Below are positions 3,748 to 64,000 of a DNA stretch of 64,000 bases, one piece after another. Every line of letters starts with the position of its first letter. Position 1 is the stretch's first letter. The stretch is taken from NCBI GenBank assembly GCA_041665485.1, contig JBAYIT010000001.1, positions 345,399 to 409,398 of the forward strand, read 5' to 3'. Source of the stretch: Candidatus Shapirobacteria bacterium (lineage in GTDB: Bacteria; Patescibacteriota; Microgenomatia; UBA12405). The translations under genes were made by a program, and so were the position numbers. The notes under the pieces are model-generated. The model made no database searches. It had not been told where the DNA came from and was given only the letters and a program-made list of their open reading frames with translations.

Positions 3748-3787
3748 GTGTGATTTCTTTTAGTTAAAAATTTTAGAATTAAAAAAT

Positions 3788-17485: not shown

Positions 17486-17709
17486 AGATTACAAGAGATA
17501 AGGGGTTGAAATGACGAGGAGCCACCCAACTCCTTATTCTCTTCTAATCTCTAGTTGTTAAGTTTACAACCTATATTATACATTATTTATGTCGCTTGTC
17601 AAGTTATAGGTCTATGTTTTAAAGTAATTGGTAAACGGTAACCGGTAATTGGTAAAAATATAGGGCTAGAAGATGGTTGATTAGATTTCGAGGCCTATAA
17701 AGTTTAGAT

Positions 17710-28123: not shown

Positions 28124-28207
28124 ACGTCATCGCGAGGCCGAAGGCCGTGGCGATCTCGTTTGGGATTGCTTCGTCCTCCGAAAGCTTTCGGAGTCCTCGC
28201 AATGACG
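28124..28207. repeat. REP/MITE-like palindromic element, copy 1 (acgtcatcgcgagg...cctcgcaatgacg)
   Basis: 13-bp terminal inverted repeats enclose ggccgaaggccgtggcgatctc..gggattgcttcg plus an internal hairpin. Other copies at 37624-37727 (reverse orientation, with insert), 55577-55648, 56005-56081, and a minimal fused form at 62735-62752. Confidence 0.8.
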
Positions 28208-29118: not shown

Positions 29119-30069
29119 TCAAGAAAAGTATTTTATAACATCTTGGCAGGAGGGTAGGTGGAGGTCTTGAGAATAACCACAATTATATTTTGGATCACAA
29201 CAACCGGAACAGGAAATTTTTAATTTCTCCGTCTGAGACGGACTTCGCTTCGCTTCGCAATTTTCAATTTTCAATGAATGTTCAAATTTATTAATTTCAA
29301 AATTATTAAATAGTTTGCAGTTTTGACAAGTGGAAAGTAAATTTGAAAAATCAGTAACTATTTTTTTAATTGGATCGGAGAGTTTGCCGATAGAAATAGG
29401 GGATTCGCAACAACTATAAATTAGGCCGTTTGACTGAAGAGAGATTTGGGAGCAGCCTAAATTTTTTCCTGGAAAAGTGGGGTAATTTTGTTTAATGTTG
29501 ATAACTTGGGCGGGAGTGAGAGAGCCTAAACGGTCGGTGAGATAGGTAACGGTAACTGGTAATCGGTAATCGGTAATCAGTGATCTGGGAAAAGAGTCCT
29601 TATACTTATATGAATCTTTAGTAATTAGAAAAAAGATACCAACGGGGAAGCCGAGGGAAAGGGCGTGGTTGATAAAGTCGATAGATTTGGCAAAATTGCC
29701 CCCCCCGCGATTTTTGTCGTGAATTTCCTTGGGGCCATCAAGAGAGACCAGAAGCTGGCAGTTTTGAGGATCATTGATTTTATCGAGTTGGTCGATAGTG
29801 CCATTAGTAATAATGGTGATAAATATGCCAAGTTTGAGGAGATTATTGACGAGGCAGGGAAAGCTTTTAAGAGTGAAGACTTCACCACCGCAAAAAGTAA
29901 TAGATCCTAGATTTTGGTTTTTAGATGTTAGATAGGAACGATATCTTTTAACAAAACCTAGAATTTGCTTGTTGGTGAGGATATTTTTAGTCTTGCGGGT
30001 GTAGCAGTATTTGCAGGCAAGGTTACAGGATTCGAGAGGAGAGATATAAAGACTAGTTAGCATGGCCAA
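29119..30069 (-). CDS. radical SAM enzyme with SPASM/twitch-like C-terminal Cys cluster
   Basis: N-terminal CNLACKYCY (Cx3Cx2C) after 14 residues. CGGE SAM-binding glycine motif. C-terminal CSQISLQSNGLIYSCC (Cx8Gx4C) and CQNC...C...SCSGCC...C clusters. Two repeat families are inserted in-frame (29230-29275 and 29545-29585). Probable ATG at 30063, 8 nt after the rpmG stop. Confidence 0.7.
   Translation of the reverse strand: MAMLTSLYISPLESCNLACKYCYTRKTKNILTNKQILGFVKRYRSYLTSKNQNLGSITFCGGEVFTLKSFPCLVNNLLKLGIFITIITNGTIDQLDKINDPQNCQLLVSLDGPKEIHDKNRGGGNFAKSIDFINHALSLGFPVGIFFLITKDSYKYKDSFPRSLITDYRLPVTVTYLTDRLGSLTPAQVINIKQNYPTFPGKNLGCSQISLQSNGLIYSCCESPISIGKLSDPIKKIVTDFSNLLSTCQNCKLFNNFEINKFEHSLKIENCEAKRSPSQTEKLKISCSGCCDPKYNCGYSQDLHLPSCQDVIKYFS
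29545..29585. repeat. ggtaat[ct] heptamer tandem array (in-frame inside radical SAM gene)
   Basis: ggtaacggtaactggtaatcggtaatcggtaatcagtgatc encodes ITDYRLPVTVTYLTD on the minus strand. Family members at 17625-17658, 22246-22265, 43258-43296, 43575-43600, 56471-56510, 61218-61258 and 61624-61662. Confidence 0.8.
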
Positions 30070-35804: not shown

Positions 35805-37023
35805 AATTATGGTGACAATGACCAATTTCCAAAATTACAAACATTTTTTTCCCATCTTTAAAAACAATCCAGATTTGGTGTACTTGGACAGCGGGGCGAC
35901 GACGTTGAAGCCCCAAATAGTGCTCGATAAAATGATGGAGTATTACACTAAATATAGCGCTAATATTCATCGGGGGATTTATGGAATATCAGAAATGGCA
36001 ACGGAGGAGTATGAGAAGTCGAGAGAAAAACTGCGGAAGTTTATTGGTGGACAGGATGGGCAGGTAATATTTACTGGTGGGACAACTGAAGCAATAAATT
36101 TGGTGGCCAGGGGGTGGGGAGATAAAAATTTAGTAGAAGGTGAGGAAATAGTGGTAACAGAAATGGAACACCATTCTAACTTAATTCCATGGCAAGAGTT
36201 GGTAAAGCGCAAAAATTTAAGACTTAAATTCATGACAGTTAACAATTACGAGTTACGAGTTACGAATTTTGGAAAAGTTATTGATAAAAAAACTAGACTA
36301 TTGGCGATAACGCAGGTGAGTAATGTGACCGGGTCAGTTAATCCAATTAAAAAAATAATTGAAGAGGCGAGAAAAATAAATCCGAAAATAGTGGTGGTGG
36401 TGGACGGAGCCCAGGCAGTGGCTCACAGGCCGGTTGACCTGCAGGACTTGGGGTGTGATTTTTATGCATTTTCAGGGCATAAAATGTATGGACCGACAGG
36501 AATTGGAGTGTTGTGGGCAAAAGAAGAAAGATATAAGGAGATGGAACCGATTAAATTTGGCGGGGGGATGATTGCTGAAGTGGGGCTTCTGGAAAGCACA
36601 TTTTCCAGTGGGGTGGAGAAATTTGAGGGGGGCACACCGCCGATTGCCGAAGCTATTGGGATGGGAGTGGCAGTCGATTTTATAGAAAAAATCGGAATGA
36701 CTAAAATCAAAAAACATGAGGAGGAATTAACGGCTTATTTAAGGTTTAAATTAGAAAAAGTTGCCGGTATTAAAACTTTTTCGGCGTGGCAAAGCGGAAT
36801 AGTGGCGATGGAGATCGCCGGAGTTCATCCACACGATGTGGCCCAAATTCTGGCTGACAGGGGAGTATGTGTGCGAGCAGGGCATCATTGCGCTATGCCA
36901 CTTCATAAAGCGCTGGGGGTAGAGGCAACGACACGGGTAAGTTTGGGGATTTATAATACCAAAGAAGATATAGATAAATTAGTTGAGGGACTGGAAGCAG
37001 TTAAGAAAATTTTTAATATCTAA
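35785..37023 (+). CDS. sufS: cysteine desulfurase SufS
   Basis: LDSGATTLKPQIV, HRGIY, PLP-binding FSGHKMYGPTGIGVLW and C-terminal RAGHHCA active-site Cys. In-frame agttacg repeat insert VNNYELRVTNF (36245-36266). Confidence 0.85.
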   Translation: MKLSWRKIMVTMTNFQNYKHFFPIFKNNPDLVYLDSGATTLKPQIVLDKMMEYYTKYSANIHRGIYGISEMATEEYEKSREKLRKFIGGQDGQVIFTGGTTEAINLVARGWGDKNLVEGEEIVVTEMEHHSNLIPWQELVKRKNLRLKFMTVNNYELRVTNFGKVIDKKTRLLAITQVSNVTGSVNPIKKIIEEARKINPKIVVVVDGAQAVAHRPVDLQDLGCDFYAFSGHKMYGPTGIGVLWAKEERYKEMEPIKFGGGMIAEVGLLESTFSSGVEKFEGGTPPIAEAIGMGVAVDFIEKIGMTKIKKHEEELTAYLRFKLEKVAGIKTFSAWQSGIVAMEIAGVHPHDVAQILADRGVCVRAGHHCAMPLHKALGVEATTRVSLGIYNTKEDIDKLVEGLEAVKKIFNI

Positions 37024-37477: not shown

Positions 37478-37623
37478 TAATTGTAAAATTGCGACGACCT
37501 GTCCGAAAGCCTTCGGACTGCTCTGTCTCCCCGATATTGTGATCGGGGTCGTCCCCTGGACGAAACTGTGGGGTTTAGCCCCACTCCGGTTCCATACCGG
37601 AGAGCTATTCAGGCAAGATTCCA

Positions 37624-37727
37624 ACGTCATTGTGAGGATCCCGATAGCTATCGGGAGACGAAGCAATCTCAATGAGATCGCCACGGCCTTTGGCCTTCCG
37701 TCTGAGCCGGACGCGGCGCGATGACGT
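37624..37727. repeat. REP/MITE-like palindromic element, copy 2 (reverse orientation, with about 30-bp internal insert)
   Basis: Reverse complement reads acgtcatcgcg[ccgcgtccggctcagacgg]aaggccaaaggccgtggcgatctcattgagattgcttcgtctc..cctcacaatgacgt. Part of a GC-rich, hairpin-dense intergenic stretch at 37480-37740. Confidence 0.7.
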
Positions 37728-42459: not shown

Positions 42460-44393
42460 ATGTTAGATTTTTTGATTTTGTCGAGGTACTTTTGAGCATC
42501 AATGTTGGTGGGGGCAAATTTGAGGGTAGATTCAAATAGTTGACGGGCTTCGGAGTATTTTTTTTGATTAAAGTAGATTTTGCCGAGATTAAAAAGGGCG
42601 TGGTCGTAGTTGGATTTGAGAGCAATGGCTTGTTGATAGTATTTAGTGGCGGTGGTTTCGTCTTTATTAAGTTCGTTAAAGTAGCCTAGGAGATAAAAGC
42701 TTTTGGCGTCGGTGGGGGCTAATTTAACGACTTGCTCTAGGCTATTAATTGAGGCAGAGATCATTTTAGGGTCGAGGGCCGAGAGATAAAAATAATTTTG
42801 GGCTGATTGCTTCCAAAAATTAGTATTGGCGGGAGAGATTTCTAGGGCGAGTTGGGTGAATTGAAGGGATTGACTGGAATAGAGCTTTTTTGACTCCGGA
42901 TTAGAAATGGCGACGGCTAACTTAGCGGTAATTGAGCCGGCGGAGATTAAATATTCCGGTTCGTTTGGCGATAGTTTTAGAGCTAAAATAATTTGAGTCA
43001 AGGCAGGTTGAATTTGGTTTTGGGAGTCAAGAGTTGAGGCTTTGGCAAAACAGATATCGGCCAAAAACAATTTGGAAATTTGGAGTAAGAGAAATAAGGG
43101 GATAATTAAGACTAAAAACAAAAAAGATCGTCGATCGTCGATCGTCGATGGTCGATTATTTTCATTTAGAACGAGGGCGGGGAGGAGAAAGAGGTAGAGA
43201 GAGGTGATGACGATGGAAAAGCCAGTGAGGTTGGTGATGAGAATTGACAAGAAAGAAATGGTAATTGGTAATCGGTAATTGGTAATCGGTAATTTGAGAA
43301 ATAAATATAGAATAGAAAAAATAAGAATAAGATAGGTGAGGAGGCCGAAGGTGCCGGTGGTGGCGGAAAAATTAAGATATTCGTTGTGGGCTTTGTTGTA
43401 GAGGAAATCCCATTCGGAGGTGAGATTGTGAGACGAAGGCCTGGTCCAATAATAGGAATAAGCAAAGGTTTCGACACCGGTGCCAAAGAGTGGGTAGTGG
43501 CGCCAGAGATCGAAAGCGCCTTGCCAGACGATTTTGCGAATATCCTGACTAGGAGTGATATTGATGTTTTGTGACTCGTGATTAGTGATCGGTGATCCGG
43601 TTTTAGAAGGGAACACGAGGTCTTTGATGGGATTGTTGATGATGAGAGTTAGAGTCAAAAGTAAAAAGTAAAAAGTGAAAAGTGAAAGCTTATTTTTTTG
43701 TTTTTGAATTAGAGAAAGGACAAAAAATAAAAACAAACAAACAAGGGCGGTGAGGATGCCGGTTTTGGATTTGGTAGAGAGAAGACAAAAATAGAAACAA
43801 GAACTAAGAGCTAAGAAATAAGATTTATTAATAAAACTCTTTGAATTTAGAAATTTAAAGAGAGAAAAGGGGAGGAGGAGGCAGAGATAGGCGGATAACC
43901 AATTGGGCTGGCCGAAAGTGGAGAAAACTCGTGATTGAACATCCTGAACCCAGTAGGTTTTATCAATGCCAAAGTGTTGGGCTATGCCATAGAGAGAAAC
44001 TATAAATCCAGAGATTAGGGAATAATTAATAATTTTGGATTTTAATTCTTCGGTAATGTGAACAGACAAAATAAAATAGAGAAGAACAAAACAGACAGTG
44101 GAAATTAGGCCACCATTGAGGCGGGAATAGTAACCAAAAAGTGAAGTGTGAATGTCGATGGAAAAAATAGTAGAAATAACTTGGGAAGTTAAAAACAAAA
44201 GAAGGGGAATGGTGAGAAGGGTGGAGCGAAGGAGGTGGTTCTTACCTTTAATCCAGCCATAAAGATGTAAAGTAAGAATGGTAAGGGTGGCAATATAAAC
44301 AAAATACATTTTGGGGACTTCAAAAAGCTCGGAATTTAGGGGGGAATAGAGGAGAGGGGTGAGAAAAAAGAGAAGACAGTAGAGAAAGTTCAT
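42456..44393 (-). CDS. O-antigen ligase (Wzy_C)-family polytopic membrane protein with C-terminal TPR repeats
   Basis: About 10 TM helices, Wzy_C-like WQGAFDLWRHYPLFGTGVETF, and C-terminal TPR-like repeats. Contains in-frame inserts of three repeat families plus a (cgatcgt)4 heptamer microsatellite at 43125-43160. Confidence 0.6.
   Translation of the reverse strand: MNFLYCLLFFLTPLLYSPLNSELFEVPKMYFVYIATLTILTLHLYGWIKGKNHLLRSTLLTIPLLLFLTSQVISTIFSIDIHTSLFGYYSRLNGGLISTVCFVLLYFILSVHITEELKSKIINYSLISGFIVSLYGIAQHFGIDKTYWVQDVQSRVFSTFGQPNWLSAYLCLLLPFSLFKFLNSKSFINKSYFLALSSCFYFCLLSTKSKTGILTALVCLFLFFVLSLIQKQKNKLSLFTFYFLLLTLTLIINNPIKDLVFPSKTGSPITNHESQNINITPSQDIRKIVWQGAFDLWRHYPLFGTGVETFAYSYYWTRPSSHNLTSEWDFLYNKAHNEYLNFSATTGTFGLLTYLILIFSILYLFLKLPITNYRLPITISFLSILITNLTGFSIVITSLYLFLLPALVLNENNRPSTIDDRRSFLFLVLIIPLFLLLQISKLFLADICFAKASTLDSQNQIQPALTQIILALKLSPNEPEYLISAGSITAKLAVAISNPESKKLYSSQSLQFTQLALEISPANTNFWKQSAQNYFYLSALDPKMISASINSLEQVVKLAPTDAKSFYLLGYFNELNKDETTATKYYQQAIALKSNYDHALFNLGKIYFNQKKYSEARQLFESTLKFAPTNIDAQKYLDKIKKSNI
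43258..43296. repeat. ggtaat[ct] heptamer tandem array (in-frame in Wzy-like gene)
   Basis: gtaattggtaatcggtaattggtaatcggtaatt encodes LPITNYRLPITI on the minus strand. Confidence 0.8.
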
Positions 44394-50083: not shown

Positions 50084-50193
50084 CCAAATTCCAATTTTCA
50101 ATTTTCAATGAATTTATTAATTTTAAAAATTTTCAATTGAAAATTAATACATTAGAATATTCATTGGATTTTGGAATTTGAAAATTGAAAATT

Positions 50194-53727: not shown

Positions 53728-55943
53728 TTATGCTTGCCCCAGCGTTCTTGGGAAGTGCGGATGAGCTTATCGTGGCCTTGGTTTTTACAGTCAAGTAGAG
53801 GCAGAGTGGTGGCGTAAAATGGTTCTTTGGTTTCGGAGTCGATCGATAATTTACAAATGATTTGATATTTGCCCAGTTTGACTAGGTCATCGGCGGGGAA
53901 CTTCTCGCCAAATTCTTTGCTTAAGATATAAGCGTCTTGATTGCCAACGACAAAGGACATAAGTGAGCCGACGTTGCCAAAAATAGCGTCTTGGATGGGG
54001 CGCTCAAGCTGATTCATATATTGGTTGGCAACAATGAGGTTGAGTTTAAATTTGCGGGCTTCAGAGAGTATTTTAATAAAGGCCTCGGTGGCAAAATTTT
54101 GGAATTCGTCAACGTAGAGATAGAAGTCTGATCGGTCGGCTTGTGTTTGAAATACCCGATTCATGGCCGAAAGTTGAATTTGGGTGATCAACATGGCGCC
54201 AAGAAGGGCAGAATTATCTTCGCCGAGTTTGCCATTGGACAGGTCGGCGATCAAGATTTTCTTTTGATCCATGATATCTTGAATGCGGACTTTAGATTTG
54301 GGGTGGGCAATAGTGTTGCGGATATTAGTGGAGGAAATAAATTGGCCGACTTTGTTCAAAATAGGAGCGATGGCTTCGTTTTGGAATTTGGCATCCATTT
54401 GATCAAATTCATTAATCCAGAAGTTTTTAAGAGTTTGATTGGCAAGGAGAGGAACGATTTTTTGGCGATAAGATTTGGAGGTGAGAATTTCAACGATATG
54501 AGTGAGATCGGAGCCGGGAACGTTGACGAGAGTTAAAACGGCGTTGCGCAAAATATGCTCGAGGCGTGGCCCCCAGGAGGTGGCGCCATAAAGTTTTTTG
54601 AAAATGGAAATAACGCCGGAGGCAACTAATTCTTTTTGGGAATCGTTTTCAGCCTCCAAAACATTTAAGGGGTAAACATAATCGGGATCGGCGGGGTTGA
54701 AATAACAACAATCGTTGATGCGGGAGGAGGGGATGTAATCAAGAATAGTTTGGCAAAGGTCGCCGTGGGGGTCGATGACGGCTACGCCCCGGCCTTTGCG
54801 AATATCGTCGATGGCCATGTTGGCGATGAGAGTGGTTTTACCGGTGCCGGATTTACCGACAATGTAGGTGTGGCGGCGGCGGTCTTCACCTTCTTTAATG
54901 CCAAAAATAGCTTCTTTATTGCGGAATTCGGTTTTGGCAAAAACAGTCACGTTTTGACGTTCTTCTTCGGAAAGGTCGGCAACGACGGGTAAGTTTTCGG
55001 GCGGATCAGCATACAGCTTTTTGCCCCAAGCAATGTTGGGGATCTTGGTTTTTTCTCCGGGAAAGTGCCAAAGGACTGACAATTCTTCAGTGTTTAAAAT
55101 TTGATGATTAAGAGAAGAAGTAAAAGCGCGGTTAAGAATCGATTTGAGTAATTTCTTTTTGGTGAAAAAACCGGGTTGATTAATTTTAATAAAATTGCCA
55201 CGAGGGTTGGTATAAATGCCAAAGGAAGAGGTAAAAGCAGATAGAAGGCCGGAATTATTGGTTAAAAAATTAATTTGGGTGAGGAGGCCGGGGAATTGGA
55301 TTTTGGTTTCGAAAACGGCCTTATCGGGGTGATTTTGGCGAAAATTGCGGGATGAGTCGACCATGATGCCATTTTGAATGATGGAGGTGATGGGGTATTG
55401 CCAATTGTTGGGGGCGGAAGTGATTAAAATTTGATAAAGAAAAAAATCGGTGGGGGAGAGGGAGCGGGAAAGGGGGGAGAGGAGGGAATTAAGGGGATCA
55501 GTGTCCTTAAAATCGTGAATGGATTTTATTGGATAATTGTCTGATTTTGATAAGGACAATTGACTAAAAAATAGCCCGTCATCGCGAGGCCGAAGGCCGT
55601 GGCGATCTCCTTGGGATTGCTTCGTCGCTTCGCTTCTCGCAATGACGTCGGAAGCAAGGTAATCATTAATTTCCAAAGTAATAGCGGTGGGGTACTGGGC
55701 TAGGATTTGGGAGCGAAAGAATTCGGCTGAATCGGCAGGCGTTGCCACCATAAAATAAAGCTGGCCTTGTTTGAGAACGATTTCTAAAGAAATGGCGGTG
55801 TGCTTTTTGCCAAAGATGCGGTCAAAAAACGAGCCTGTGCCGGCTTGAGAAAAATTAGAGAGGAGGGAGGACATGGATTCGAGAGTGAATTCGTTGGTTT
55901 GAGGAAGACGGATGTTGAAGAGTTTCCAGGGAGACATAACCAA
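53724..55943 (-). CDS. P-loop NTPase of the TraG/TraD/VirD4-like (DUF87/AAA-like) conjugation/secretion ATPase type
   Basis: Walker A IVGKSGTGKTTL and Walker B YLYVDEFQNF in a C-terminal domain of about 400 aa. No N-terminal TM helices. Carries a complete REP-like element in-frame (55577-55648, encoding SDVIARSEATKQSQGDRHGLRPRDD). Confidence 0.5.
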   Translation of the reverse strand: MVMSPWKLFNIRLPQTNEFTLESMSSLLSNFSQAGTGSFFDRIFGKKHTAISLEIVLKQGQLYFMVATPADSAEFFRSQILAQYPTAITLEINDYLASDVIARSEATKQSQGDRHGLRPRDDGLFFSQLSLSKSDNYPIKSIHDFKDTDPLNSLLSPLSRSLSPTDFFLYQILITSAPNNWQYPITSIIQNGIMVDSSRNFRQNHPDKAVFETKIQFPGLLTQINFLTNNSGLLSAFTSSFGIYTNPRGNFIKINQPGFFTKKKLLKSILNRAFTSSLNHQILNTEELSVLWHFPGEKTKIPNIAWGKKLYADPPENLPVVADLSEEERQNVTVFAKTEFRNKEAIFGIKEGEDRRRHTYIVGKSGTGKTTLIANMAIDDIRKGRGVAVIDPHGDLCQTILDYIPSSRINDCCYFNPADPDYVYPLNVLEAENDSQKELVASGVISIFKKLYGATSWGPRLEHILRNAVLTLVNVPGSDLTHIVEILTSKSYRQKIVPLLANQTLKNFWINEFDQMDAKFQNEAIAPILNKVGQFISSTNIRNTIAHPKSKVRIQDIMDQKKILIADLSNGKLGEDNSALLGAMLITQIQLSAMNRVFQTQADRSDFYLYVDEFQNFATEAFIKILSEARKFKLNLIVANQYMNQLERPIQDAIFGNVGSLMSFVVGNQDAYILSKEFGEKFPADDLVKLGKYQIICKLSIDSETKEPFYATTLPLLDCKNQGHDKLIRTSQERWGKHK
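55577..55648. repeat. REP/MITE-like palindromic element, copy 3 (inside ATPase coding sequence, in-frame)
   Basis: cgtcatcgcgaggccgaaggccgtggcgatctccttgggattgcttcgtcgcttcgcttctcgcaatgacg. Confidence 0.8.
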
Positions 55944-56004
55944 TTATAGAACAGTTATCAGTTAAGAGTTACGAGTTACGAGTTGATTTTTAATTTAAAG
56001 ACAT

Positions 56005-56081
56005 ACGTCATCGCGAGGCCGAAGGCCGTGGCGATCTCGTTCGGGATTGCTTCTCCGCTAGCTGGCGGATCGCAATGACGT
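56005..56081. repeat. REP/MITE-like palindromic element, copy 4 (intergenic)
   Basis: acgtcatcgcgaggccgaaggccgtggcgatctcgttcgggattgcttctccgctagctggcggatcgcaatgacgt. Preceded by an agttacg array (55953-55986). Confidence 0.8.
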
Positions 56082-56210
56082 TAAATTTGTTTTTGTCTTA
56101 TGGGATAAAAGAAACTACATACGTAGTAGGTAGAAAAAAGACCACTTGCTACTTGAAAATGATTTTATAAGAGTGTATCTTATAGGGCAATTTACTAGTT
56201 ATTATCTTTT

Positions 56211-56441
56211 ATGCCTAGTGGGCGGGTAATGAATAATCAAGTAGTAGCTGCGATTGCAATCGACGAGTTGAGGTGTTTGGAAGTTGTTGATGGGGGTGAT
56301 GGTTCTAACGTTCCAGGTTTTCAGGTAATGGAGAGGTTCACGAGGACATTAAAAACGGATGAGAGTCCTCATGCAAACAGGAGGTTGGATGCCCCAGATG
56401 ATAGAGGTTACACCCCTTCTCACGATATTAGAAGAAGTTAA
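56211..56441 (+). CDS. hypothetical protein (weak)
   Basis: 76-aa ORF. No features. Confidence 0.25.
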   Translation: MPSGRVMNNQVVAAIAIDELRCLEVVDGGDGSNVPGFQVMERFTRTLKTDESPHANRRLDAPDDRGYTPSHDIRRS

Positions 56442-56552
56442 TTTAACCAGACAGGATCCGAAGAAAAAACACTGGTAATCAGTAATTGGTAATCAGTAAC
56501 TGGTAACTAGAAACAAGAAAAAAGTTAAAAATTTAATTTAATCCGCCAGTGG

Positions 56553-56801
56553 GTGGACAAGAAAAAAATGGCGCCGAGAAAGGGTAGGGGCGAAAGAGAA
56601 GGACAGATGGCTTTTGGTTATACTGTTCCGAGCTTGGCTCCAAAACAACCGGAAGGCTTGCCTGGTAAACCTCCAAAACCAGCAATTGGAGGGTTGCCAC
56701 TTATTAGAGAGAATGTTGGGCATTATGAGTTTGGAGATACTGGGGGTGGAGAGCCAGAGTATGTTTGGGTGAGAGGAGGGGAGAATGAATGGACTGATTG
56801 A
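56553..56801 (+). CDS. hypothetical Gly/Pro-rich protein
   Basis: 82-aa ORF. Overlaps the next ORF by 17 nt. Confidence 0.3.
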   Translation: MDKKKMAPRKGRGEREGQMAFGYTVPSLAPKQPEGLPGKPPKPAIGGLPLIRENVGHYEFGDTGGGEPEYVWVRGGENEWTD

Positions 56802-57543
56802 GGGAAGGGATGGAGGGAGTTGTGGAGGATATACTGATCAGTTGATTGGTGGGGCGAGGATAAATGGATTGAGACTTGGTGATTCTTTGTCCGTGTTGGG
56901 GGATGGAGGTGGTTTAGCCAGAATTAGGGGAGATTTAATGTTTGACATATTGGCGGGTCATAGAGGATTTGGAAAAACGGAAGAGATAAAAAGAAATGTC
57001 ACTGAAGGCGAGGCGAAATGGCTGGCGGTGCTGGCGGAGACGTTGGATTTGGTGATGGGAAGAGTTTCTGGAGAGACGATTTTTTTGGCAAGTCAGAGAA
57101 CAGTGGGGGGAGATAAAGAAATTGGTTTGGAAGTTGGCTGGGTTGGTGGATCTTTAAATTTATTGCTTATGCGTAGTGGAAGATCGGTTGGTGGGGTAGT
57201 AGCTAAGGTCGACAGCGAAAACTCGGTGAGTTTTGGAACTACTAATGGCAGTGGAATGATGGTGGATTGGGATCTGAGAGTTTGGGAGGTGGTTAAGCAG
57301 TTATTACCGGAAGCGACGGGGAATGATGCGCAAGCGATAGTGCGAAGGGGTGCAAGATCGGAAAGTTATGTTTGGAGCGATTTGAGAGATAAAATGATTA
57401 GGTGGCAGGATTTTGATGGTTATCCATGGAGTGATGTGTTTGGTGTTATGCGATATGGGAACGAATTTGTCGGCAGTCGTTTTGGTGTTGGTTGTGGTGT
57501 TAAAAAAACTAAAATATCTGATTTGAGTTTGAGGGTTAATTGA
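56785..57543 (+). CDS. hypothetical Gly/Val/Arg-rich protein
   Basis: 252-aa ORF. No family recognised. Confidence 0.4.
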   Translation: MNGLIEGRDGGSCGGYTDQLIGGARINGLRLGDSLSVLGDGGGLARIRGDLMFDILAGHRGFGKTEEIKRNVTEGEAKWLAVLAETLDLVMGRVSGETIFLASQRTVGGDKEIGLEVGWVGGSLNLLLMRSGRSVGGVVAKVDSENSVSFGTTNGSGMMVDWDLRVWEVVKQLLPEATGNDAQAIVRRGARSESYVWSDLRDKMIRWQDFDGYPWSDVFGVMRYGNEFVGSRFGVGCGVKKTKISDLSLRVN

Positions 57544-57588
57544 CATTATGATGAAAATTGATGCAGTTTGTGATATATTTGCCTAAAT

Positions 57589-58776
57589 ATGGCAGGGGTG
57601 AATCCGATTGAAGCGAGAAATGGAGATGAAGTGGTTCCGTTTGGGTTGGCGCAGATTGACAGGTTGGTGACAAGATTAGTGGGTACAGAAAATTGTAGAG
57701 GTGGAGGTGTTGTTTTGAGTGGAGTAGCAAATGAATGTGGTGAAGTGGCTATGATGAGGGCGTGGCGTGGTAGTTTGGAGGCAGGGGCCGGGTTAATTCA
57801 GGTAATGACTAGAGCTGGTACTGTTTATTGTGTTGAGGCAGAACGGGACGGGAGACATCGGGTGTCGGTTAACGGGATGGTTGAGTCAGACGAGAATAAG
57901 GCCTGGCTGGGAAAGCAACTATCTGTTTTTTTTGGGAGGGCTGATTTGGAGGTAATGAAAATTGATGAAAGTGGACAAGAGGTGAAATCTGGGGGCAGGT
58001 TTGAATGGAGGCCGGTAGTGGTCGCTGAAATGCCGGTGGTGAGAAACCACCCCACAACTTCAGAAAGATCTTTACCTATGGTAGATGGGAGAACAGGTGA
58101 GCGGGCTGATGTTGAATATGTGGCTTTAGTAAGAGATACCTTGGCGGCATGGAACACTCAAATTAAAGGGGTGATTGGGCATGCGGTTTTTGGGGATGAT
58201 GGCGAAAAAGGGGTGATAAGGTGCTATTGGAAAGAAGAAGGGCGTCTTGGGGTGGAAGTGATGGGTGGTGATGGAACTATACATATTTGCACTTTAGTAG
58301 TTGATGGTAATACGGTTAGGGGAGTTGATGTTGAAGGTGAGGATGTAAAAAGTGTAGAATTGTCGCTTATTGTTGGAAAATTACGTCAGGTGGTTGATAC
58401 AGGTACTTTGTGTCATTATGCTGGCAATGTGGCAACCGAGACTATTGCGGTGAGTTTTGGTGGTAAAGTTGCCAACTCAGATGTAGTACTGGTGAGAGCA
58501 GTGGAAAGTCGGTTAGGTGCTAGTGGGGGCGGGAATATGTCTGGACGTATTACTCTGGAGGATGGTTCTGTGGTTGAGGCGAAGTTGGTTGCAATGATGG
58601 GTGGTGTTGGTATGGAATTAAAGTTTGGAGGGGACGTGTATTGTGTTTATGTAAGGGACGGAATACTCAGTGTCCAAAATGAGTACGAGCGTAGTTTGGC
58701 GGGGGGGAGAGAAGGTGAGGAATTGCGTGTAAGAGTGCTAAATTGGGTTCGAGAAATAGTAAATAGACAGAGTTAA
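57589..58776 (+). CDS. hypothetical Gly/Val-rich protein
   Basis: 395-aa ORF. No family recognised. Confidence 0.45.
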   Translation: MAGVNPIEARNGDEVVPFGLAQIDRLVTRLVGTENCRGGGVVLSGVANECGEVAMMRAWRGSLEAGAGLIQVMTRAGTVYCVEAERDGRHRVSVNGMVESDENKAWLGKQLSVFFGRADLEVMKIDESGQEVKSGGRFEWRPVVVAEMPVVRNHPTTSERSLPMVDGRTGERADVEYVALVRDTLAAWNTQIKGVIGHAVFGDDGEKGVIRCYWKEEGRLGVEVMGGDGTIHICTLVVDGNTVRGVDVEGEDVKSVELSLIVGKLRQVVDTGTLCHYAGNVATETIAVSFGGKVANSDVVLVRAVESRLGASGGGNMSGRITLEDGSVVEAKLVAMMGGVGMELKFGGDVYCVYVRDGILSVQNEYERSLAGGREGEELRVRVLNWVREIVNRQS

Positions 58777-58815
58777 TTTGACATTATAGGATGGCGGGGG
58801 TAGAATACTGGGCAA

Positions 58816-59037
58816 ATGATAGGAGCTATCGCTTCTCATTCTCATGAAGCTTGGTTTTATGGTACACATGATCCGAACTTGTCTTGGAGACGGCGTCTGC
58901 AGGAGGCAAAAAAAGAACCTTTTGATTTGGTAAGGTGTTTTAGAGAAAATTTAGAATGCAGATTTGGGGTGATTGGTGTTGGAGTTGGTTTTGGGTCGTT
59001 GTTGTGTGCTTGTGTTCTTCGTGGAGTACCGCAATAA
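58816..59037 (+). CDS. hypothetical small protein (weak)
   Basis: 73-aa ORF with hydrophobic Cys-containing C-terminus. Confidence 0.25.
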   Translation: MIGAIASHSHEAWFYGTHDPNLSWRRRLQEAKKEPFDLVRCFRENLECRFGVIGVGVGFGSLLCACVLRGVPQ

Positions 59038-59135
59038 AAAATCTGTTATAATTCCCTGTTAAAAAGTTTTAGCTGGGCTTTAGTAATTATCCTGGGATTT
59101 TCCCTGAAGTCTGGCTTAATAAAAAGGATAGTCAA

Positions 59136-60047
59136 ATGGCAAAAAAAATTGTTAAGACAAAAACGGTTAATCGAACCGGTAAAAAAATCGTTAAGAAAGC
59201 GTTGGTAATTAAAGAAAAAAAAGAAAAGGTGTTGACGGCGGAGAAGATTAAGTCTTTGAACGAGAAAACTTTAGGAACAAGGAAAGAGGTACAAGGTACA
59301 AGGAAAGAGGAATTGGAAATTAAGGCAAAAGATGAGAAGAAGATACTTGAGGACAAAAAATATAATTTGACGGTGGGGCTGAAGGATTTATTGGCGGCAG
59401 GATGCCACCTGGGGCATAAAGTCAGTAAAACTAACCCCAAAGCCAAGGGAAATCTTTACAAAGCAATTGACGGAATTCAGGTGTTTGATTTGGTTAAAAC
59501 GATGGCCGGGCTAGAGGCGGCCTGCAATTTTGTCTACAACTCCAAGAGGAACGGTAAACAGATTGTGTTGGTGGGAACTAAGAGACAAGCTAAAGAAGTG
59601 GTTAAGAGAGTGGCGCTGGACGCCGGAGTGGCCTACATTACCAACCGATGGCTGGGAGGAACGATAACTAATTGGGACCAGATTAGAAAAACGATCAAGC
59701 GTTATTGGGATTGGAAAGAAGGCTTGGAGCAAAATAAATTCACCAATAAAACCAAAAGAGAGCTTTTGGAAATGAGTAAAGAATTAGTTCGGATTGAGAA
59801 AAATATCGGTGGATTGGCTAAGTTGGATAAACTATTTGATGTGATGTTTGTGGTTGATGCCGGTGGAGAAAAGACGGCGGTAAAAGAAGCAAGTTTGACT
59901 AAAGTGAAGATAGTGGGAATGGTGGACACTGACACTGATCCGGCTAAAGTTGACTTTCCGATTCCGGCCAATGATGACAATGTTAAATCAGTGACTTTAA
60001 TAGTTGAGGAAATTGGGAAGGCTATTAAGGCGGCAGGGGTCAAATAG
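59136..60047 (+). CDS. rpsB: 30S ribosomal protein S2 with about 90-aa Lys-rich N-terminal extension
   Basis: Core LLAAGCHLGHKVSKTNPKAKGNLY, QIVLVGTKRQAKEVVKRVALDAGVAYITNRWLGGTITNW and FVVDAGGEKTAVKEA match S2. The extension contains a direct duplication (LGTRKEVQGTRKEE). Confidence 0.85.
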   Translation: MAKKIVKTKTVNRTGKKIVKKALVIKEKKEKVLTAEKIKSLNEKTLGTRKEVQGTRKEELEIKAKDEKKILEDKKYNLTVGLKDLLAAGCHLGHKVSKTNPKAKGNLYKAIDGIQVFDLVKTMAGLEAACNFVYNSKRNGKQIVLVGTKRQAKEVVKRVALDAGVAYITNRWLGGTITNWDQIRKTIKRYWDWKEGLEQNKFTNKTKRELLEMSKELVRIEKNIGGLAKLDKLFDVMFVVDAGGEKTAVKEASLTKVKIVGMVDTDTDPAKVDFPIPANDDNVKSVTLIVEEIGKAIKAAGVK

Positions 60048-60102
60048 ATCTTAGATTTTAGATCTTAGTTCTTAGAAATAATATATTAATTTTAATTAAA
60101 AC

Positions 60103-60552
60103 ATGGAACAAAAAAAATTGATTGAAATTGTTAAAAAGTTGAGGGATGAGACGGGGGCGGGGGTGATGGAGGTAAAGACGGCAGTTGAAGAAGCCGGAGG
60201 CGACGAGAAGAAAGCGAGAGAGGTGTTGAAGAGAAAAGGAAAAGAGAAGGCGGAGAAAAAAGCCGAGAGGGAAACCAGACAGGGATTAGTGGCAACTTAT
60301 ACCCATTCTACGGGAAAAATAGGGGTGATGGTGGAGCTTCTATGTGAAACCGATTTTGTGGCTAAAAACGAAGAGTTTACTAAAATAGCCAGAGATTTTT
60401 GCTTGCAGGTGGCAGCGATGGGAACAGAAAAACTTTTGGAGCAAGAGTTTATAAAAGATCCTTCAAAAAAGATGGATGATTTGATTAAAGAGCTGGTGTT
60501 GAAATTTGGAGAAAATATTAAATTAGGTAGAGTTGAACGATACGAAATATAA
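60103..60552 (+). CDS. tsf: elongation factor Ts (short form)
   Basis: N-terminal UBA-like IEIVKKLRDETGAGVMEVKTAVEEAGGDEKKAREVLKRKG, followed by TYTHSTGKIGVMVELLCETDFVAKNEEF. Confidence 0.85.
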   Translation: MEQKKLIEIVKKLRDETGAGVMEVKTAVEEAGGDEKKAREVLKRKGKEKAEKKAERETRQGLVATYTHSTGKIGVMVELLCETDFVAKNEEFTKIARDFCLQVAAMGTEKLLEQEFIKDPSKKMDDLIKELVLKFGENIKLGRVERYEI

Positions 60553-60560
60553 TTTCTGGC

Positions 60561-60642
60561 TCGATAACTAATTTTTGCAGTGCTCACGCGTTGCGCCCTT
60601 CGGGCTTACATGATTGCGCGCTGAAAAATTGTTATCTCGCCT
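60561..60642. repeat. 85-bp palindromic element, copy C
   Basis: cgataactaatttttgcagtgctcacgcg...cccttcgggc...gcgcgctgaaaaattgttatctcg. Outer stem differs from copy A by paired, complementary substitutions. Confidence 0.6.
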
Positions 60643-60665
60643 TAAAATTATTGCTATACTAACTT

Positions 60666-61217
60666 ATGATAAATACAACCGATGTCAGACAGAAAATGGA
60701 TAGGGTGGGGCAATTGTTTTCCGAGGATATTGGCTCAATACGGACAGGGAGAGCGACGCCGGCGCTGATTGAAAACGTGGCAGTGGCGGTGTATGGAGGG
60801 CAGAAAATGAAGTTGATTGAGCTGGGGAGTATAGGTGTTCCTGATGTGCGGAGTTTGACGTTCCAGCCATGGGATGCGTCGACAGTACGAGAGATTGCTA
60901 ATCAGATTCAGGCGGCTAATGTGGGGTTGACACCAGTAGTAGACGGAGTGTTGATTCGGATAAACTTACCGATGTTGACGGTAGAACAGAGGGAAGATTA
61001 TGTAAAGTTATTGGGAAGAAAACTGGAAGGGGTGAGGGTGATGATTCGAGACATACGGGCTGATTTTAGAAAAAAGCTAATTGATGCCAAACAAGAGAAA
61101 ACGATTGGCGAGGATGAATATAAACGGGATGAGACGGAATTACAAAAAGTGACCGATGAATACGTGGCCAAGTTGGAAAAGATAGCTCAAGAAAAAGAGA
61201 AAGAGATTAGGGGATAG
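60666..61217 (+). CDS. frr: ribosome recycling factor
   Basis: IRTGRATPALIENVAVAVYG, LTFQPWDAS and VMIRDIRADFRKKL are canonical RRF blocks. Confidence 0.9.
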   Translation: MINTTDVRQKMDRVGQLFSEDIGSIRTGRATPALIENVAVAVYGGQKMKLIELGSIGVPDVRSLTFQPWDASTVREIANQIQAANVGLTPVVDGVLIRINLPMLTVEQREDYVKLLGRKLEGVRVMIRDIRADFRKKLIDAKQEKTIGEDEYKRDETELQKVTDEYVAKLEKIAQEKEKEIRG

Positions 61218-61258
61218 CATTGGTAATTGGTAATTGGTAATCTGTAATCTGTGATAGG
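61218..61258. repeat. ggtaat/tctgtaa heptamer array (left flank of four-helix-bundle gene)
   Basis: attggtaattggtaattggtaatctgtaatctgtgatagg. Inverted counterpart at 61624-61662 (gattaccaattaccaattactgattactgattactaatc). Confidence 0.8.
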
Positions 61259-61625
61259 AAATAAATTGGTTGATTTTTATGATCTAGAAGCATGGAAGGA
61301 AGGACATAAGTTGGCTCTGTTGGTGTATGGAATGGTTAGTAAATTACCATCAGACGAAAAATATGGTTTGTCAGATCAACTAAGAAGAGCTTCAGCTTCG
61401 GTAACGGCAAATATTGCCGAGGGTTTTGGTAGGTTTCATTTTAATGACAAAATACACTTTTTCTATTTATCGAGAGGTTCGGTGAAAGAAGTTCAGAGTT
61501 TTTTATTGCTAGGGAGAGATTTGAAGTATTTGAGTGTAGTAGATGTTAATATTGTTTGGACCCAATCAAAGTCGGCTGAAAAATTAATTAACGGACTAAT
61601 AAGGTCAACAGAAAAACAAAAATGA
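61251..61625 (+). CDS. four-helix-bundle protein (TIGR02436, 23S rRNA IVS protein / Avd-like)
   Basis: GTG start. YDLEAWKEGHKLALLVY...LSDQLRRASASVTANIAEGFGRF...FLLL matches the family signature. Confidence 0.8.
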   Translation: MIGNKLVDFYDLEAWKEGHKLALLVYGMVSKLPSDEKYGLSDQLRRASASVTANIAEGFGRFHFNDKIHFFYLSRGSVKEVQSFLLLGRDLKYLSVVDVNIVWTQSKSAEKLINGLIRSTEKQK

Positions 61626-61662
61626 TTACCAATTACCAATTACTGATTACTGATTACTAATC
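61624..61662. repeat. inverted heptamer array (right flank of four-helix-bundle gene)
   Basis: Reverse complement pairs with 61218-61258 over gattaccaattaccaatta. Confidence 0.8.
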
Positions 61663-62715
61663 ATGGATATAATAATTTTCGTAATTGCGCTGTCAATTTT
61701 AGTTTTGGTGCATGAATTTGGCCATTATTTGGCGGCGATTAAGACTGGGGTATTGGTGGAAGAGTTTGGGCTGGGGTTGCCACCAAGGATTTTTGGCAAA
61801 AAGATAGGTAAAACTATTTTTAGTTTGAATTGGTTGCCGATTGGTGGTTTTTGCCGGCTTTACGGCGAGGACGGCGACAAAAAAGAAAAAAATGCTTTTA
61901 ATAACAAAAATCCATGGCAAAAGGGACTGATAGTTTTGGGAGGAGTATTGATGAATTTGGTTATGGCAGTGGTAATTTTTTCGGTGGTTTACTCGATTTT
62001 GGGAGTGCCCAAGGAAACGGATGTGGTGAAGATTATTGGGGTGACTAAAAATAGTCCGGCGGAGACGGCTGGCTTGAAAGAAGGCGATGTAATTTTGGCG
62101 GTGGAGCAGAAGCCGATAACTAAATCGGCAGAATTGATTGAAGAAGTGGGGAAATATAAAAATAAGTTTGTCAAGTTGAAAGTTGAAAGTTTCAAGTCGA
62201 AAGTGATTGGGGAGGTGGAGGTGGAGGTAAGGGAGAATCCGCCGGCGGGGGAGGGGGCGATGGGAGTGGCAGTGTCAAACACAGAAATGGTGAAATTACC
62301 TTGGTACCGATTTTACGAGGGGATTGGAGCGGGATTTAAGGAAGCTTATTATTGGGGCCGAGTGATATTCGGCGGAGTGACAAAAATGATTGGCGGATTG
62401 CTTTTGGGCCAAGTGCCAAAGGATGTGGCCGGGCCAATTGGCATGTTTCAGGCAACAAGTAGTATTAAGCAGAGCCAGGGAATGCTGGCAGTAATTCATT
62501 TTTTCGGAATAGTGTCGGTTAACTTGGCGATTGTGAATATTTTACCGTTTCCGGCGCTGGACGGAGGCAGAATTATTTTTGTGCTTTATGAACTTATAGC
62601 CAAGAAGCGAGTAAACCAGAGGTTTGAGGTGTTGGTTAATAATGTTGGGATGATGGTGTTGCTGGGATTGTTGTTGCTGATAACAGTAGGGGACATTGGG
62701 AGAGTGCTTAAATAG
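61663..62715 (+). CDS. rseP: RIP metalloprotease RseP (site-2 protease, M50, with PDZ)
   Basis: HEFGHYLAA in TM1, PDZ-like middle region (GLKEGDVILAV), and C-terminal LDGGRII/NIL motif. In-frame agttgaa repeat insert KFVKLKVESFKSKV (62161-62210). Confidence 0.85.
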   Translation: MDIIIFVIALSILVLVHEFGHYLAAIKTGVLVEEFGLGLPPRIFGKKIGKTIFSLNWLPIGGFCRLYGEDGDKKEKNAFNNKNPWQKGLIVLGGVLMNLVMAVVIFSVVYSILGVPKETDVVKIIGVTKNSPAETAGLKEGDVILAVEQKPITKSAELIEEVGKYKNKFVKLKVESFKSKVIGEVEVEVRENPPAGEGAMGVAVSNTEMVKLPWYRFYEGIGAGFKEAYYWGRVIFGGVTKMIGGLLLGQVPKDVAGPIGMFQATSSIKQSQGMLAVIHFFGIVSVNLAIVNILPFPALDGGRIIFVLYELIAKKRVNQRFEVLVNNVGMMVLLGLLLLITVGDIGRVLK

Positions 62716-62734
62716 TCCAAAAAGTAAAACAAGA

Positions 62735-62752
62735 ACGTCATCGCAATGACGT
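62735..62752. repeat. minimal REP-like palindrome (acgtcatcgcaatgacgt), fused terminal repeats without internal region
   Basis: 7-bp stem and 4-nt loop identical to the termini of the long copies. Lies between rseP and the convergent GH gene. Confidence 0.6.
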
Positions 62753-62760
62753 GGGCTGGG

Positions 62761-63927
62761 TTATAGTGGAGAAAGTTCCAAAAGAACGGCGGAGTTGACG
62801 TCAAGAAAAATTTCGGTTAGATAACGGGTGGTAACGGAAATTTGCTTAGTTGAAGGTTTGCGGGAGGCGGGGTAGAGACTAGTAGTGAGCTGATATTGAC
62901 CGGGAGAAATACCAGTGATAGCCAAAGGAACTGTTTCGGCGTGAGTTTGACGAGGATCATAATTAACTAAAAGTATTCTAGTGACACTGCCGTCTTGAGC
63001 AGAGAGAGAGGTAACCCAACTGCCATCGCCGGTGGTGGCGAGGCGTTCTCCAGAGAGGTTATTGAGAAGCTCTATCGCTTGAAAACGGGGTTTAGGAGTG
63101 GCTTTGGAATTGGGGTGAGTGATCATGCCCCAGCCGGTGGATTTATCACTTCGGGGGGAGGGGCCGTCGACGGCTTCAAAGGGAAAAATACGATGGACTT
63201 TGCCGGCAAGTTGAGTGGTAAGAGAGAGGAGATGGATGCCGGAAAGATGGTTGTCGTACCAGGGGTCGGGCTCGGAATTGGGGCCGATTTCAGTGATAAG
63301 ACGTTCAATATTTGAATACTGTGGGTAATCAGTAAGAATTAGATTTAATTTGTCAAAATCGGCAATAAAGTCGTCGATGTTTTTGGAATAGCGATGCCAG
63401 GAAAGAAAATCAAGGCGAAGATGGTTGTCGGCAGTAGTTTTTAAAAGCGAGGTGATCCAATTGGGGTAAAAGCCGGTAGTGGCCGGGCCACCAATCTTGT
63501 ATGGAGAGTTGCCGGCCCCTTGGGCAACTGCCTTGGCGGTTTGAAGATAAAGAGTGGAGTAGGAAGGGGAACGGCTGTAATGCCAGCCACCAAAAAGGTC
63601 GGGCTCGTTCCAAACTTCGTAATAGATGTTGGGAATGTTTTGGTCGACACTATAGCGTTTGGCGGTGGCAGAAACGAGCTGAAACCAAAGATTCCAGTCT
63701 TTGGGCTCGCCGGCATTTTGGCCGGTTTTACTCATATCGGCGGTGGTATAAGAAATAGAGAGGAGGGGAGTGGCGCCGGTTAAGAGAATACTATTGACAA
63801 CTTTGTCGAGTTTGGAAAAGTCGTAGTTGCCCGGGCCCTGATAAACCTGGTAATAGTCAAATAAGTGATCGACGCGGATTAATTCGGGCTGAAGTTGGCG
63901 AACTAGAGGGAAAATAGGGCCGATCAT
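62761..63927 (-). CDS. glycoside hydrolase, GH39/GH5-like (TIM-barrel) family
   Basis: YYEVWNEPDL (acid/base Glu) and ITEIGP (nucleophile Glu) are spaced as in GH39-type beta-xylosidase/iduronidase-like enzymes. A TGA stop lies immediately upstream of the ATG at 63927. Confidence 0.5.
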   Translation of the reverse strand: MIGPIFPLVRQLQPELIRVDHLFDYYQVYQGPGNYDFSKLDKVVNSILLTGATPLLSISYTTADMSKTGQNAGEPKDWNLWFQLVSATAKRYSVDQNIPNIYYEVWNEPDLFGGWHYSRSPSYSTLYLQTAKAVAQGAGNSPYKIGGPATTGFYPNWITSLLKTTADNHLRLDFLSWHRYSKNIDDFIADFDKLNLILTDYPQYSNIERLITEIGPNSEPDPWYDNHLSGIHLLSLTTQLAGKVHRIFPFEAVDGPSPRSDKSTGWGMITHPNSKATPKPRFQAIELLNNLSGERLATTGDGSWVTSLSAQDGSVTRILLVNYDPRQTHAETVPLAITGISPGQYQLTTSLYPASRKPSTKQISVTTRYLTEIFLDVNSAVLLELSPL

Positions 63928-64000
63928 GTCAACTGGCTCCTCGCCACCTTGAGCAAGATTACGCCAAAGAGAGGGGTTTATACTGCCTTGAGGAGAGGAA

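Follow-up and report, generated by a model that had tools for sequence, protein, structure and literature searches.

Intervening sequences (IVSs) of rRNA genes that carry an open reading frame (ORF) for an S23p protein were first described in the early 1990s. In Coxiella, the IVS of the 23S rRNA gene has a length of 428-444 nt and contains an S23p ORF enclosed by terminal inverted repeats, which form a stem of 28 bp; two or three tandem GACAGAT heptamers and one degenerate copy are located directly before the S23p ATG (PMC4990558). Both the Coxiella and the E. coli RNase III cut this IVS in vitro, with the 5' cut at the first repeat, and the S23p ORF has been reported to be decaying and untranslated (PMC4990558). 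S23p-encoding IVSs are also present in 23S rRNA genes of Leptospira (PMC4990558), and insertions in the 16S and 23S rRNA genes of the candidate phyla radiation likewise bear ORFs of the 23S_rRNA_IVP family (PMC11270868). Here, we describe a candidate element of this known kind, an S23p/IVS stem-loop cassette, and what is new is its residence in a protein-coding operon. It was found in a stretch of 64,000 nt from a Candidatus Shapirobacteria bacterium (contig JBAYIT010000001.1, assembly GCA_041665485.1), which is referred to as the window in the following. There, a gene for a small four-helix-bundle (4HB) protein is located between frr and an rseP-like gene, and both of its flanks, the arms, are made up of tandem 7-nt repeats in inverted orientation.

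All genes of the string rpsB-tsf-frr-4HB-rseP are on the + strand, and the 4HB ORF is in sense with its neighbours (coordinates are compiled in Table 1). The frr stop codon TAG (61215-61217) is followed by the dinucleotide CA and then by the left-arm heptamers, while the dinucleotide TC separates the right-arm heptamers from the ATG of rseP (61663). The two short gaps around the 4HB ORF thus consist almost wholly of heptamers, which have the form xxxGTAA on the left and TTACxxx on the right. A preliminary description of this DNA had read the left arm as (ttggtaa)3(tctgtaa)2; the heptamer array is indeed there, but its fifth unit is TCTGTGA, which holds the GTG start codon of the 4HB gene at 61251. 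The right arm had been described as the inverted counterpart of the left arm. This holds for the orientation, for the core (GTAA versus TTAC), and for the pairing of the two arms, but the order of the units is no strict mirror image (A A A B B' on the left, a a b b b' on the right). The cassette lies co-directionally inside the rpsB-tsf-frr-rseP string, and nothing resembling a promoter or a terminator of its own is present on the + strand from frr to rseP. An Rfam scan of positions 55000-64000 gave zero matches. The 64-kb window contains a single copy of the 4HB gene.

The complementarity of the arms was quantified in several ways. An inverted-repeat search found 20 nt of perfect complementarity, or 27 nt at 85%. 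In the minimum free energy (MFE) fold of positions 61205-61675 (471 nt) both arms pair, and none of 100 shuffled sequences folded as well (z = -4.6). When the arms were cofolded alone, they formed 23 bp, a 2x2 loop, and a further 6 bp, with an energy of -33.6 kcal/mol. The predicted pairing places the frr stop codon beside the rseP start codon and buries the start codon of the 4HB gene.

Inverted heptamer arms are a hallmark of the PF05635/TIGR02436 family, to which the 4HB protein belongs. A metagenome scan with a 32-sequence family alignment yielded 80 loci encoding proteins with 37-57% identity to the window protein. Inverted period-7 arrays flank nearly all of the sampled loci, and the units vary from locus to locus (examples of unit pairs are AAGATTT/AAATCTT, GTATxxx/xxxATAC, ATTGAAT/ATTCAAT, TGGTGAC/GTCACCA, and GGGGTTx/xAACCCC). 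The ungapped stem score between the 5'- and 3'-flanks was at least 10 in 72 of 78 loci and at least 14 in 57 of them. With a stricter stem score, a value of at least 10 was reached in 47 of 73 loci, compared with 0 of 73 in direct orientation and 1 of 195 random pairs of the same spacing. As a control, the flanks of neighbouring genes were scored, and a value of at least 14 was reached in 10 of 129 cases. Most of these ten lay between adjacent cassettes or were known elements, such as a REP-associated tyrosine transposase (RAYT) gene flanked by repetitive extragenic palindromic (REP) sequences and an insertion sequence (IS). One of them (L060/L061, 1270-1983), an IS200-like transposase of the RAYT type that is flanked by REP-like palindromes (AGTAGGGTCAGACCCTACT) and adjoins a 4HB cassette, served as an unplanned positive control of the flank-pairing test.

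Within the stems, the agreement with a period of 7 ranges from 0.65 to 1.0 and is mostly 0.8-1.0. On the start-codon side, the stems end at a distance of about 0-20 nt, and on the other side they begin at the stop codon or close to it. The cassettes usually reside in operons: 63 loci have a co-directional upstream neighbour and 5 do not (median gap 31 nt), and the downstream neighbour is co-directional in 50 loci versus 11 (median gap 40 nt). The arms have a consistent strand asymmetry, the left arm containing 5.8% C versus 24.5% G. The number of units per arm has a mode of 4-5 with a broad spread and is uncorrelated between the two arms, which bears on the idea that a pentamer might call for five units. 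Non-coding flanks of an rRNA-like kind were seen in 0 of the 80 metagenome loci, although both flanks could be assessed only where at least 400 nt were present. Two further ideas about the arrays were dropped: an expectation-maximization alignment of 65 consensus heptamers did not reveal a universal core (4.47 bits versus 4.44 bits for shuffled heptamers), and stop codons in all three frames, as a possible purpose of the arrays, are present in only 24 of 65 left arms.

The same arrangement was found in cultured organisms. A 4HB cassette on a Calothrix plasmid has the arms GGGTGTA/TACACCC, and plasmids of Trichormus and Azospirillum show the same inverted-heptamer geometry around a 4HB gene. 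On a plasmid of Picosynechococcus sp. PCC 7003 (NZ_CP016476.1, locus L130), a type III-B CRISPR operon has a cassette with GGAGATA/TATCTCC arms between its cas10/cmr2 and cmr3 genes. The crystallized family member XCC0516 of Xanthomonas is encoded between accB and accC and also has inverted heptamer arms. Its left arm reads GGGAATC GGGAGTG GAGAATC GGGAATC, and the reverse complement of its right arm reads GGGAATA GGGAGTC GAGAATG GGGAATG. Compared in this way, the two arms have their units in the same order and differ at every seventh base, and the energy of the arm duplex is -43.8 kcal/mol.

These results bear on whether the flanks could be ordinary heptamer arrays that were generated by slippage and are unrelated to the gene. 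The window contains about 24-30 period-7 arrays of at least six types, several arrays have a GGTAA core, and heptamers are over-represented in many bacteria (PMC4692102, PMC4679880). The array types of this genome include AGTTACG, TAGATCT, and CAATTTT. Because period-7 arrays are so common, a lone pair of neighbouring arrays of the same type is not very improbable, and it is the family-wide statistics that decide. Complementary arms in 72 of 78 family loci, as opposed to the frequencies given above for random pairs and neighbouring genes, make a coincidence extremely unlikely, as do the conservation of the arms at a synonymous divergence (dS) of about 1 and the persistence of the arrangement in the relatives L002 and L003. 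The preliminary description had allowed for flanks that are ordinary, unpaired arrays and for relatives that have the gene without inverted repeats. Instead, the arms pair in a family-wide pattern, and the relatives that have the gene keep the arrays.

Next, the frr-rseP junction was compared among relatives. A genome scan with an Frr alignment yielded this junction for 42 other Shapirobacteria species, all with an empty or differently filled site: the 4HB gene was present between frr and rseP in 0 of the 42. In about nine species, the two genes are 4-7 nt apart with nothing inserted; in about ten, a lone (TAGATNN)x5 array in one direction is present, and in four or five there is a hairpin element of about 115-147 nt; the remaining junctions harbour other small genes, encoding Cys-rich secreted proteins or a DUF559-like ORF. 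As the junction is differently occupied across species, it serves as a landing site with several kinds of occupants, of which the 4HB cassette is one. The frr-rseP junction is an insertion hot spot. Among the other occupants are secreted Cys-rich proteins of 110-124 aa (L006, L010), a Cys-rich protein of 318 aa (L042), and the DUF559-like ORF, which is flanked by GGGAGG-type hairpins (L039). In Shapirobacteria SZUA-533 (L026, 4187-4558), a 4HB cassette whose left side is (AGATGTC)x6 is located downstream of rseP, i.e. one junction further along this operon, where it was inserted independently. The tsf-frr spacer of the window contains an imperfect palindrome of about 110 nt (60553-60665; -33.9 kcal/mol, z = -4.2), and similar hairpin elements are found at the frr-rseP junction of L005, L011, L015, and L031/L032. 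These hairpins look like a family of MITEs (miniature transposable elements with inverted repeats), distinct from the heptamer arrays.

The gene order frr-4HB-rseP is kept on contigs with 4HB proteins that are 99%, 92%, and 64% identical to the window protein. These relatives keep xxxGTAA arrays on the left and TTACxxx arrays on the right, and the MFE folds pair them. In all relatives that keep the 4HB gene, its neighbours are housekeeping genes. The cassette was probably inserted at the frr-rseP junction in an ancestor of one Shapirobacteria sub-lineage and has since been vertically inherited, and the window copy is anciently fixed rather than recently mobile. In a neighbour-joining tree of Frr and RseP, the window and L002 stand beside L003 and L035, the latter of which lacks the gene, and the group of the window, L002, and L003 has a bootstrap value of 53/200. 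This weakly supported tree would fit a single old insertion followed by loss as well as two insertions. The relative L003 contains, in addition, a second, very divergent 4HB-like gene between rseP and a GH39 gene (3464-3886, minus strand). Its arms are ACAAATC/GATTTGT, and the strand asymmetry is reversed, the left arm being G-poor rather than C-poor.

The preliminary description had interpreted the locus as a mobile cassette with terminal inverted repeats (TIRs). An insertion bounded by paired inverted arrays is what we find, but the arrays do not behave as classical transposon TIRs do, and the copy is ancient and fixed. A non-autonomous TIR element, i.e. MITE-like cargo with the heptamer arrays as TIRs and a transposase acting in trans, would be in line with the inverted termini, the empty sites in relatives, the presence of several copies on some contigs, and the role of the frr-rseP junction as a general landing site of small elements. 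However, the arm sequences differ widely and share no terminal motif, and the length of the arrays varies. Direct repeats outside the cassette arms, as expected for a target-site duplication, were visible neither at the window junctions nor at the Xanthomonas junctions, and no transposase was linked to the cassettes among the sampled loci, apart from unrelated IS insertions. In addition, the copy has remained fixed through about 36% protein divergence, under purifying selection. Taken together, we regard a TIR element as unlikely.

The 124-aa protein between frr and rseP had been assigned to TIGR02436 in the preliminary description, and this was confirmed. It matches PF05635 with E = 4e-30 (104.7 bits, cut-off 33.8) and TIGR02436 with 96.7 bits (cut-off 24). 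These were the only types of models matched in Pfam and NCBIfam, with no recognizable nuclease or recombinase domain and no HUH/Y1 motifs. The family comprises 36,361 cluster representatives (50% identity, E <= 1e-3). The AlphaFold2 monomer model consists of four helices with a mean confidence (pLDDT) of 95, and it has TM-scores of 0.87 to 2GSC (XCC0516) and 0.79 to 2RLD (BT_0352); a phmmer search of the protein against 2GSC gave E = 5.5e-13. The predicted pI is 9.3, i.e. the protein is basic.

For the comparison of the window with L002, the ratio of nonsynonymous to synonymous divergence (dN/dS) of the 4HB gene is 0.042 at a dS of about 1.0, and the values for frr and rseP are 0.034 and 0.093. 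At this divergence, 32 of 33 nt of the left arm and 31 of 37 nt of the right arm are identical. The low dN/dS and the conserved arms show that the protein and the arms are both functional, and both are under purifying selection.

The protein had also been linked to Avd, the accessory protein of diversity-generating retroelements (DGRs). The Avd-like four-helix fold was borne out, as the model superimposes on bAvd (4DWL) with a TM-score of 0.75 and a root-mean-square deviation of 1.7, and it also matches 8UB7. However, the identity to bAvd is only 7%, and the link is one of shared fold. Some homologues additionally match the bAvd-like Pfam family PF22296, which could be taken to indicate a DGR remnant or a working Avd accessory gene. 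A Pfam scan was performed with 42 other ORFs of the window (32 of the 33 with at least 250 aa, and 10 with 195-246 aa), and it revealed no reverse transcriptase (RT). A self-BLAST of the window did not reveal any repeat near the 4HB gene that resembles a template repeat/variable repeat (TR/VR) pair, just short dispersed hairpin repeats and heptamer arrays. Both results agree with the earlier statement that the window lacks an RT and a TR/VR pair, and they argue that the cassette is not a DGR. Furthermore, the S23p proteins 2GSC and 2RLD, which do not belong to DGRs, are far closer to the protein than bAvd is, a phage collection contained zero homologues, and housekeeping genes adjoin the gene in all relatives. 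The suggested association with DGRs was thus not upheld, and an origin from, or function in, a DGR is highly improbable.

We give about an even chance to the interpretation that the element is a cassette of the S23p/IVS type, i.e. a small four-helix-bundle gene that forms the loop between two inverted 7-nt arrays paired as a stem. The cassette would be transcribed as part of the host operon, and its arms would pair in the host RNA as a duplex of about 29 bp, with the consequences predicted above for the frr stop codon, the rseP start codon, and the cassette's own start codon. By analogy with the Coxiella 23S rRNA IVS, this duplex may be a substrate of RNase III, and the cassette RNA might be excised from the host transcript, or its expression might be gated within it. 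The pairing of the arms would render the insertion structurally neutral, and excision or gating would make it tolerable inside essential transcripts. More speculatively, the basic, Avd-like protein, presumably a homopentameric toroid as is typical of its family, could bind its own heptamer stem or the repeats.

Several points weigh against this interpretation. At the non-Watson-Crick positions of the 72 stems, G.U was found 78 times and A.C 73 times, i.e. a wobble bias is absent. Because RNA helices under selection normally favour G.U, the complementarity might instead be maintained in the DNA or through a constraint that acts on each arm, and with such even counts we do not claim a covariation-type proof of an RNA helix. 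Permutation of the unit order lowered the mean stem score only from 20.6 to 17.7, in a test that is biased by the choice of the register, and much of the complementarity is due to the shared core of the units. At the unit-variable positions, the in-register partner was complementary in 67.5% of the cases, versus 32-38% after a shift by one unit, again with a bias from the choice of the register. Because of this bias, the mirror-order tests lend only moderate support to a true palindromic order, and the unit order of the window cassette is not mirrored. In addition, the near-invariance of the left arm at a dS of about 1 exceeds what pairing alone would need, and an RNase III gene was not found among the 42 window ORFs scanned. 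A cut that separates frr from rseP in the operon mRNA might come at a cost for the host. Lastly, a plain stem leaves unexplained why its strands are 7-nt repeats.

A further interpretation is possible but rather doubtful in our view. Similar to RAYTs and their REP doublets forming hairpins (REPINs), the protein would recognize its own heptamer, as DNA or as RNA, the arms would be opposed binding sites more than they would be a stem, and the protein would maintain or spread the arrays. Solo arrays and gene-less inverted pairs could be accounted for in this way, and the idea is compatible with the IVS-type interpretation. The similarity of heptamers between loci correlates with the identity of the proteins (Spearman 0.33, a value reached in 0 of 500 permutations). 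Two paralogues on one contig that are 77% identical have the same heptamer type (L065), whereas two that are 38% identical have different types (L049), and the more distant copy of L003 likewise differs. The type therefore follows the gene and not the host; however, co-inheritance of the gene and its arms predicts the correlation with the protein equally well. Arrays of the cognate type occur outside the cassette with a density of 7.9 per 100 kb, versus 0.34 for non-cognate types, an enrichment that was calculated from 5 loci only. Among them are four solo arrays with the GGTAA core in the window (Table 1), and in L083 and L103 gene-less inverted pairs of the cognate type adjoin the cassettes. 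XCC0516 has as its arms the published GGGAATC repeat, which forms 186 arrays in X. campestris, including 70 in inverted pairs (PMC4692102); in the supplementary table of that study, the left arm appears as repeat #15 and was scored as unpaired. The lack of a G.U bias, the consistent strand asymmetry of the arms, and the binding of RNA stem-loops by Avd in DGRs (bioRxiv 10.1101/2023.10.23.563531) are also in accordance with a protein that recognizes its heptamer. In contrast, the protein is devoid of a recognizable nuclease or recombinase domain, and at least six array types in the window face a single 4HB gene, although other parts of the genome could contain the genes cognate to the remaining types.

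A more general hypothesis can tentatively be derived from these results, namely that stand-alone S23p/Avd-like proteins are the cognate partners of bacterial heptamer arrays and that each lineage recognizes its own 7-nt repeat. The flanked gene would be the "master" copy, and solo arrays and gene-less pairs would be dispersed derivatives or targets. If true, the short tandemly repeated repetitive (STRR) sequences, the TAACTGA repeats, the GGGAATC repeats, and the approximately 30 arrays of the window would all be such derivatives or targets. There would be a parallel to REPIN-RAYT that is built on a non-catalytic nucleic-acid-binding pentamer, and rRNA IVSs would be the subset that landed in rRNA. 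The function of the family, the origin of rRNA IVSs (PMC4990558), and the over-representation of heptamers in bacteria are three old puzzles, which may be facets of one thing. Tractable systems are the Xanthomonas accB-XCC0516-accC locus, for which the structure has been solved and the repeat has been catalogued, and the Picosynechococcus cmr2-cmr3 cassette. We found no paper that links the 4HB family to heptamer arrays in the searchable literature, in which the family-wide link thus appears to be unreported; database annotation may nevertheless note it.

Table 1. Cassette, neighbouring genes, and solo heptamer arrays in the 64-kb window
Feature	Position	Strand	Remark
Whole cassette, 445 nt	61218-61662	+	Occupies the entire frr-rseP intergenic gap
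Left arm, (TTGGTAA)x3 TCTGTAA TCTGTGA	61219-61252	+	Begins 2 nt past the frr stop codon
124-aa four-helix-bundle (4HB) ORF, PF05635 23S_rRNA_IVP / TIGR02436	61251-61625	+	
Right arm, TGA stop codon, (TTACCAA)x2 (TTACTGA)x2 TTACTAA	61623-61661	+	Ends 1 nt short of the rseP ATG
frr, ribosome recycling factor, upstream host gene	60666-61217	+	Pfam RRF, E = 5e-49
rseP-like M50 site-2 protease with PDZ domain, downstream host gene	61663-62715	+	Pfam Peptidase_M50, E = 5.5e-53
rpsB	59136-60047	+	
tsf, short	60103-60552	+	
Solo array, GGTAA-core type like the left arm of the cassette	17630-17656	+	
Solo array, GGTAAT type	29551-29585	+	Within a radical-SAM ORF (minus strand)
Solo array, GGTAAT type	43256-43294	+	
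Solo array, related type (xxGTAAT units)	56471-56506	+	

Heptamer arrays of the window are not confined to intergenic regions. An AAGTTGA-type array inside rseP (62171-62197) is read in frame as VKLKVESFKSK, which forms a variable loop in the PDZ region; an alteration in one of its units avoids an in-frame stop codon. At the protein level, the relative L002 has LRVTSYEL at this position, the peptide expected from an AGTTACG-type array, and other species have 0-8 residues there. Arrays that are read through in frame are also present in a SufS-like ORF (36243-36269), in a radical-SAM ORF on the minus strand (29254-29275 and 29551-29585), and, four in number, in a Wzy_C/TPR ORF on the minus strand (43124-43823). 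Between a PBP2-like gene and dprA, a gene-less inverted CAATTTT/AAAATTG pair is found, the two arrays of which (50084-50110 and 50170-50193) are 60 nt apart. The pair folds as a hairpin (z = -2.45) and could represent the cassette in a "mini" form. In addition, the window contains dispersed repeats of about 75-85 nt with 76-96% identity (56005-56081, 55577-55648, 28124-28207, and 37623-37696), one copy of which forms a branched hairpin (-40.6 kcal/mol, z = -3.7), a second family of dispersed repeats (2687-2770, 3670-3747, and 9225-9302), and a 24-nt tandem repeat with 5.2 copies and 94% matches (19869-19993) inside a small ORF (19742-20170).

Heptamer repeats have been reported to be over-represented in intergenic regions of many bacteria (PMC4692102, PMC4679880). 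Examples are the TAACTGA repeats of Beggiatoaceae, Cyanobacteria, and Bacteroidetes (PMC4679880), and the GGGGAYT repeats of Nostoc as well as the GGGAATC repeat of X. campestris discussed above (PMC4692102). The cassette arms resemble the published arrays (STRR, TAACTGA, GGGAATC, and GGGGAYT) in their period of 7, in a number of about 2-6 units, and in the occurrence of inverted pairs, and the published arrays are, like the arms, intergenic and located a few nucleotides from start or stop codons within operons. In both studies, the arrays are regarded as regulatory sequences or as G-quadruplexes, and the S23p/four-helix-bundle family is not mentioned in them (PMC4679880, PMC4692102). With REPtrons and REPIN-RAYT systems, the cassette has in common that a gene lies between inverted short repeats, that solo copies and hairpin pairs of this repeat are scattered over intergenic regions of the same genome, and that the type of the repeat is specific for the gene lineage. 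However, the 4HB protein does not have the HUH/Y1 (IS200/IS605-like) transposase motifs, and the repeats are tandem heptamers instead of single palindromes. Inverted termini, an intergenic site, and empty sites in relatives are features shared with MITEs and small TIR elements, from which the cassette differs by termini that are not conserved between the copies of different genomes, by the lack of a visible target-site duplication, and by a conserved ORF that is under selection. The protein resembles Avd in its four-helix-bundle fold, its small size, and its basic character; unlike DGR-associated Avd genes, its gene is located in a housekeeping operon with heptamer-array flanks, is not accompanied by an RT, TR, or VR in the window scans, and encodes a protein with 7% identity to bAvd.

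The closest similarity is to the S23p IVSs. The protein family is the same, the ORF is in sense in a host transcript that is, presumably for the window as well, highly expressed, and the lengths are nearly identical (445 nt versus 428-444 nt). In both cases, terminal inverted repeats enclose the ORF and form a stem of about 28-29 bp, and tandem heptamers directly precede the start codon. In contrast to the IVSs, the window cassette is located between the protein genes frr and rseP and not in helix 25 or 45 of the 23S rRNA, and its protein is under strong purifying selection (dN/dS of 0.04), whereas the Coxiella ORF is reported to be decaying. RNase III cleavage is an experimental result for the Coxiella IVS, while for the window cassette it is proposed by analogy. 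In every respect that was tested, the window cassette shares the architecture of the Coxiella IVS, with the exception that it resides in an mRNA operon instead of an rRNA.

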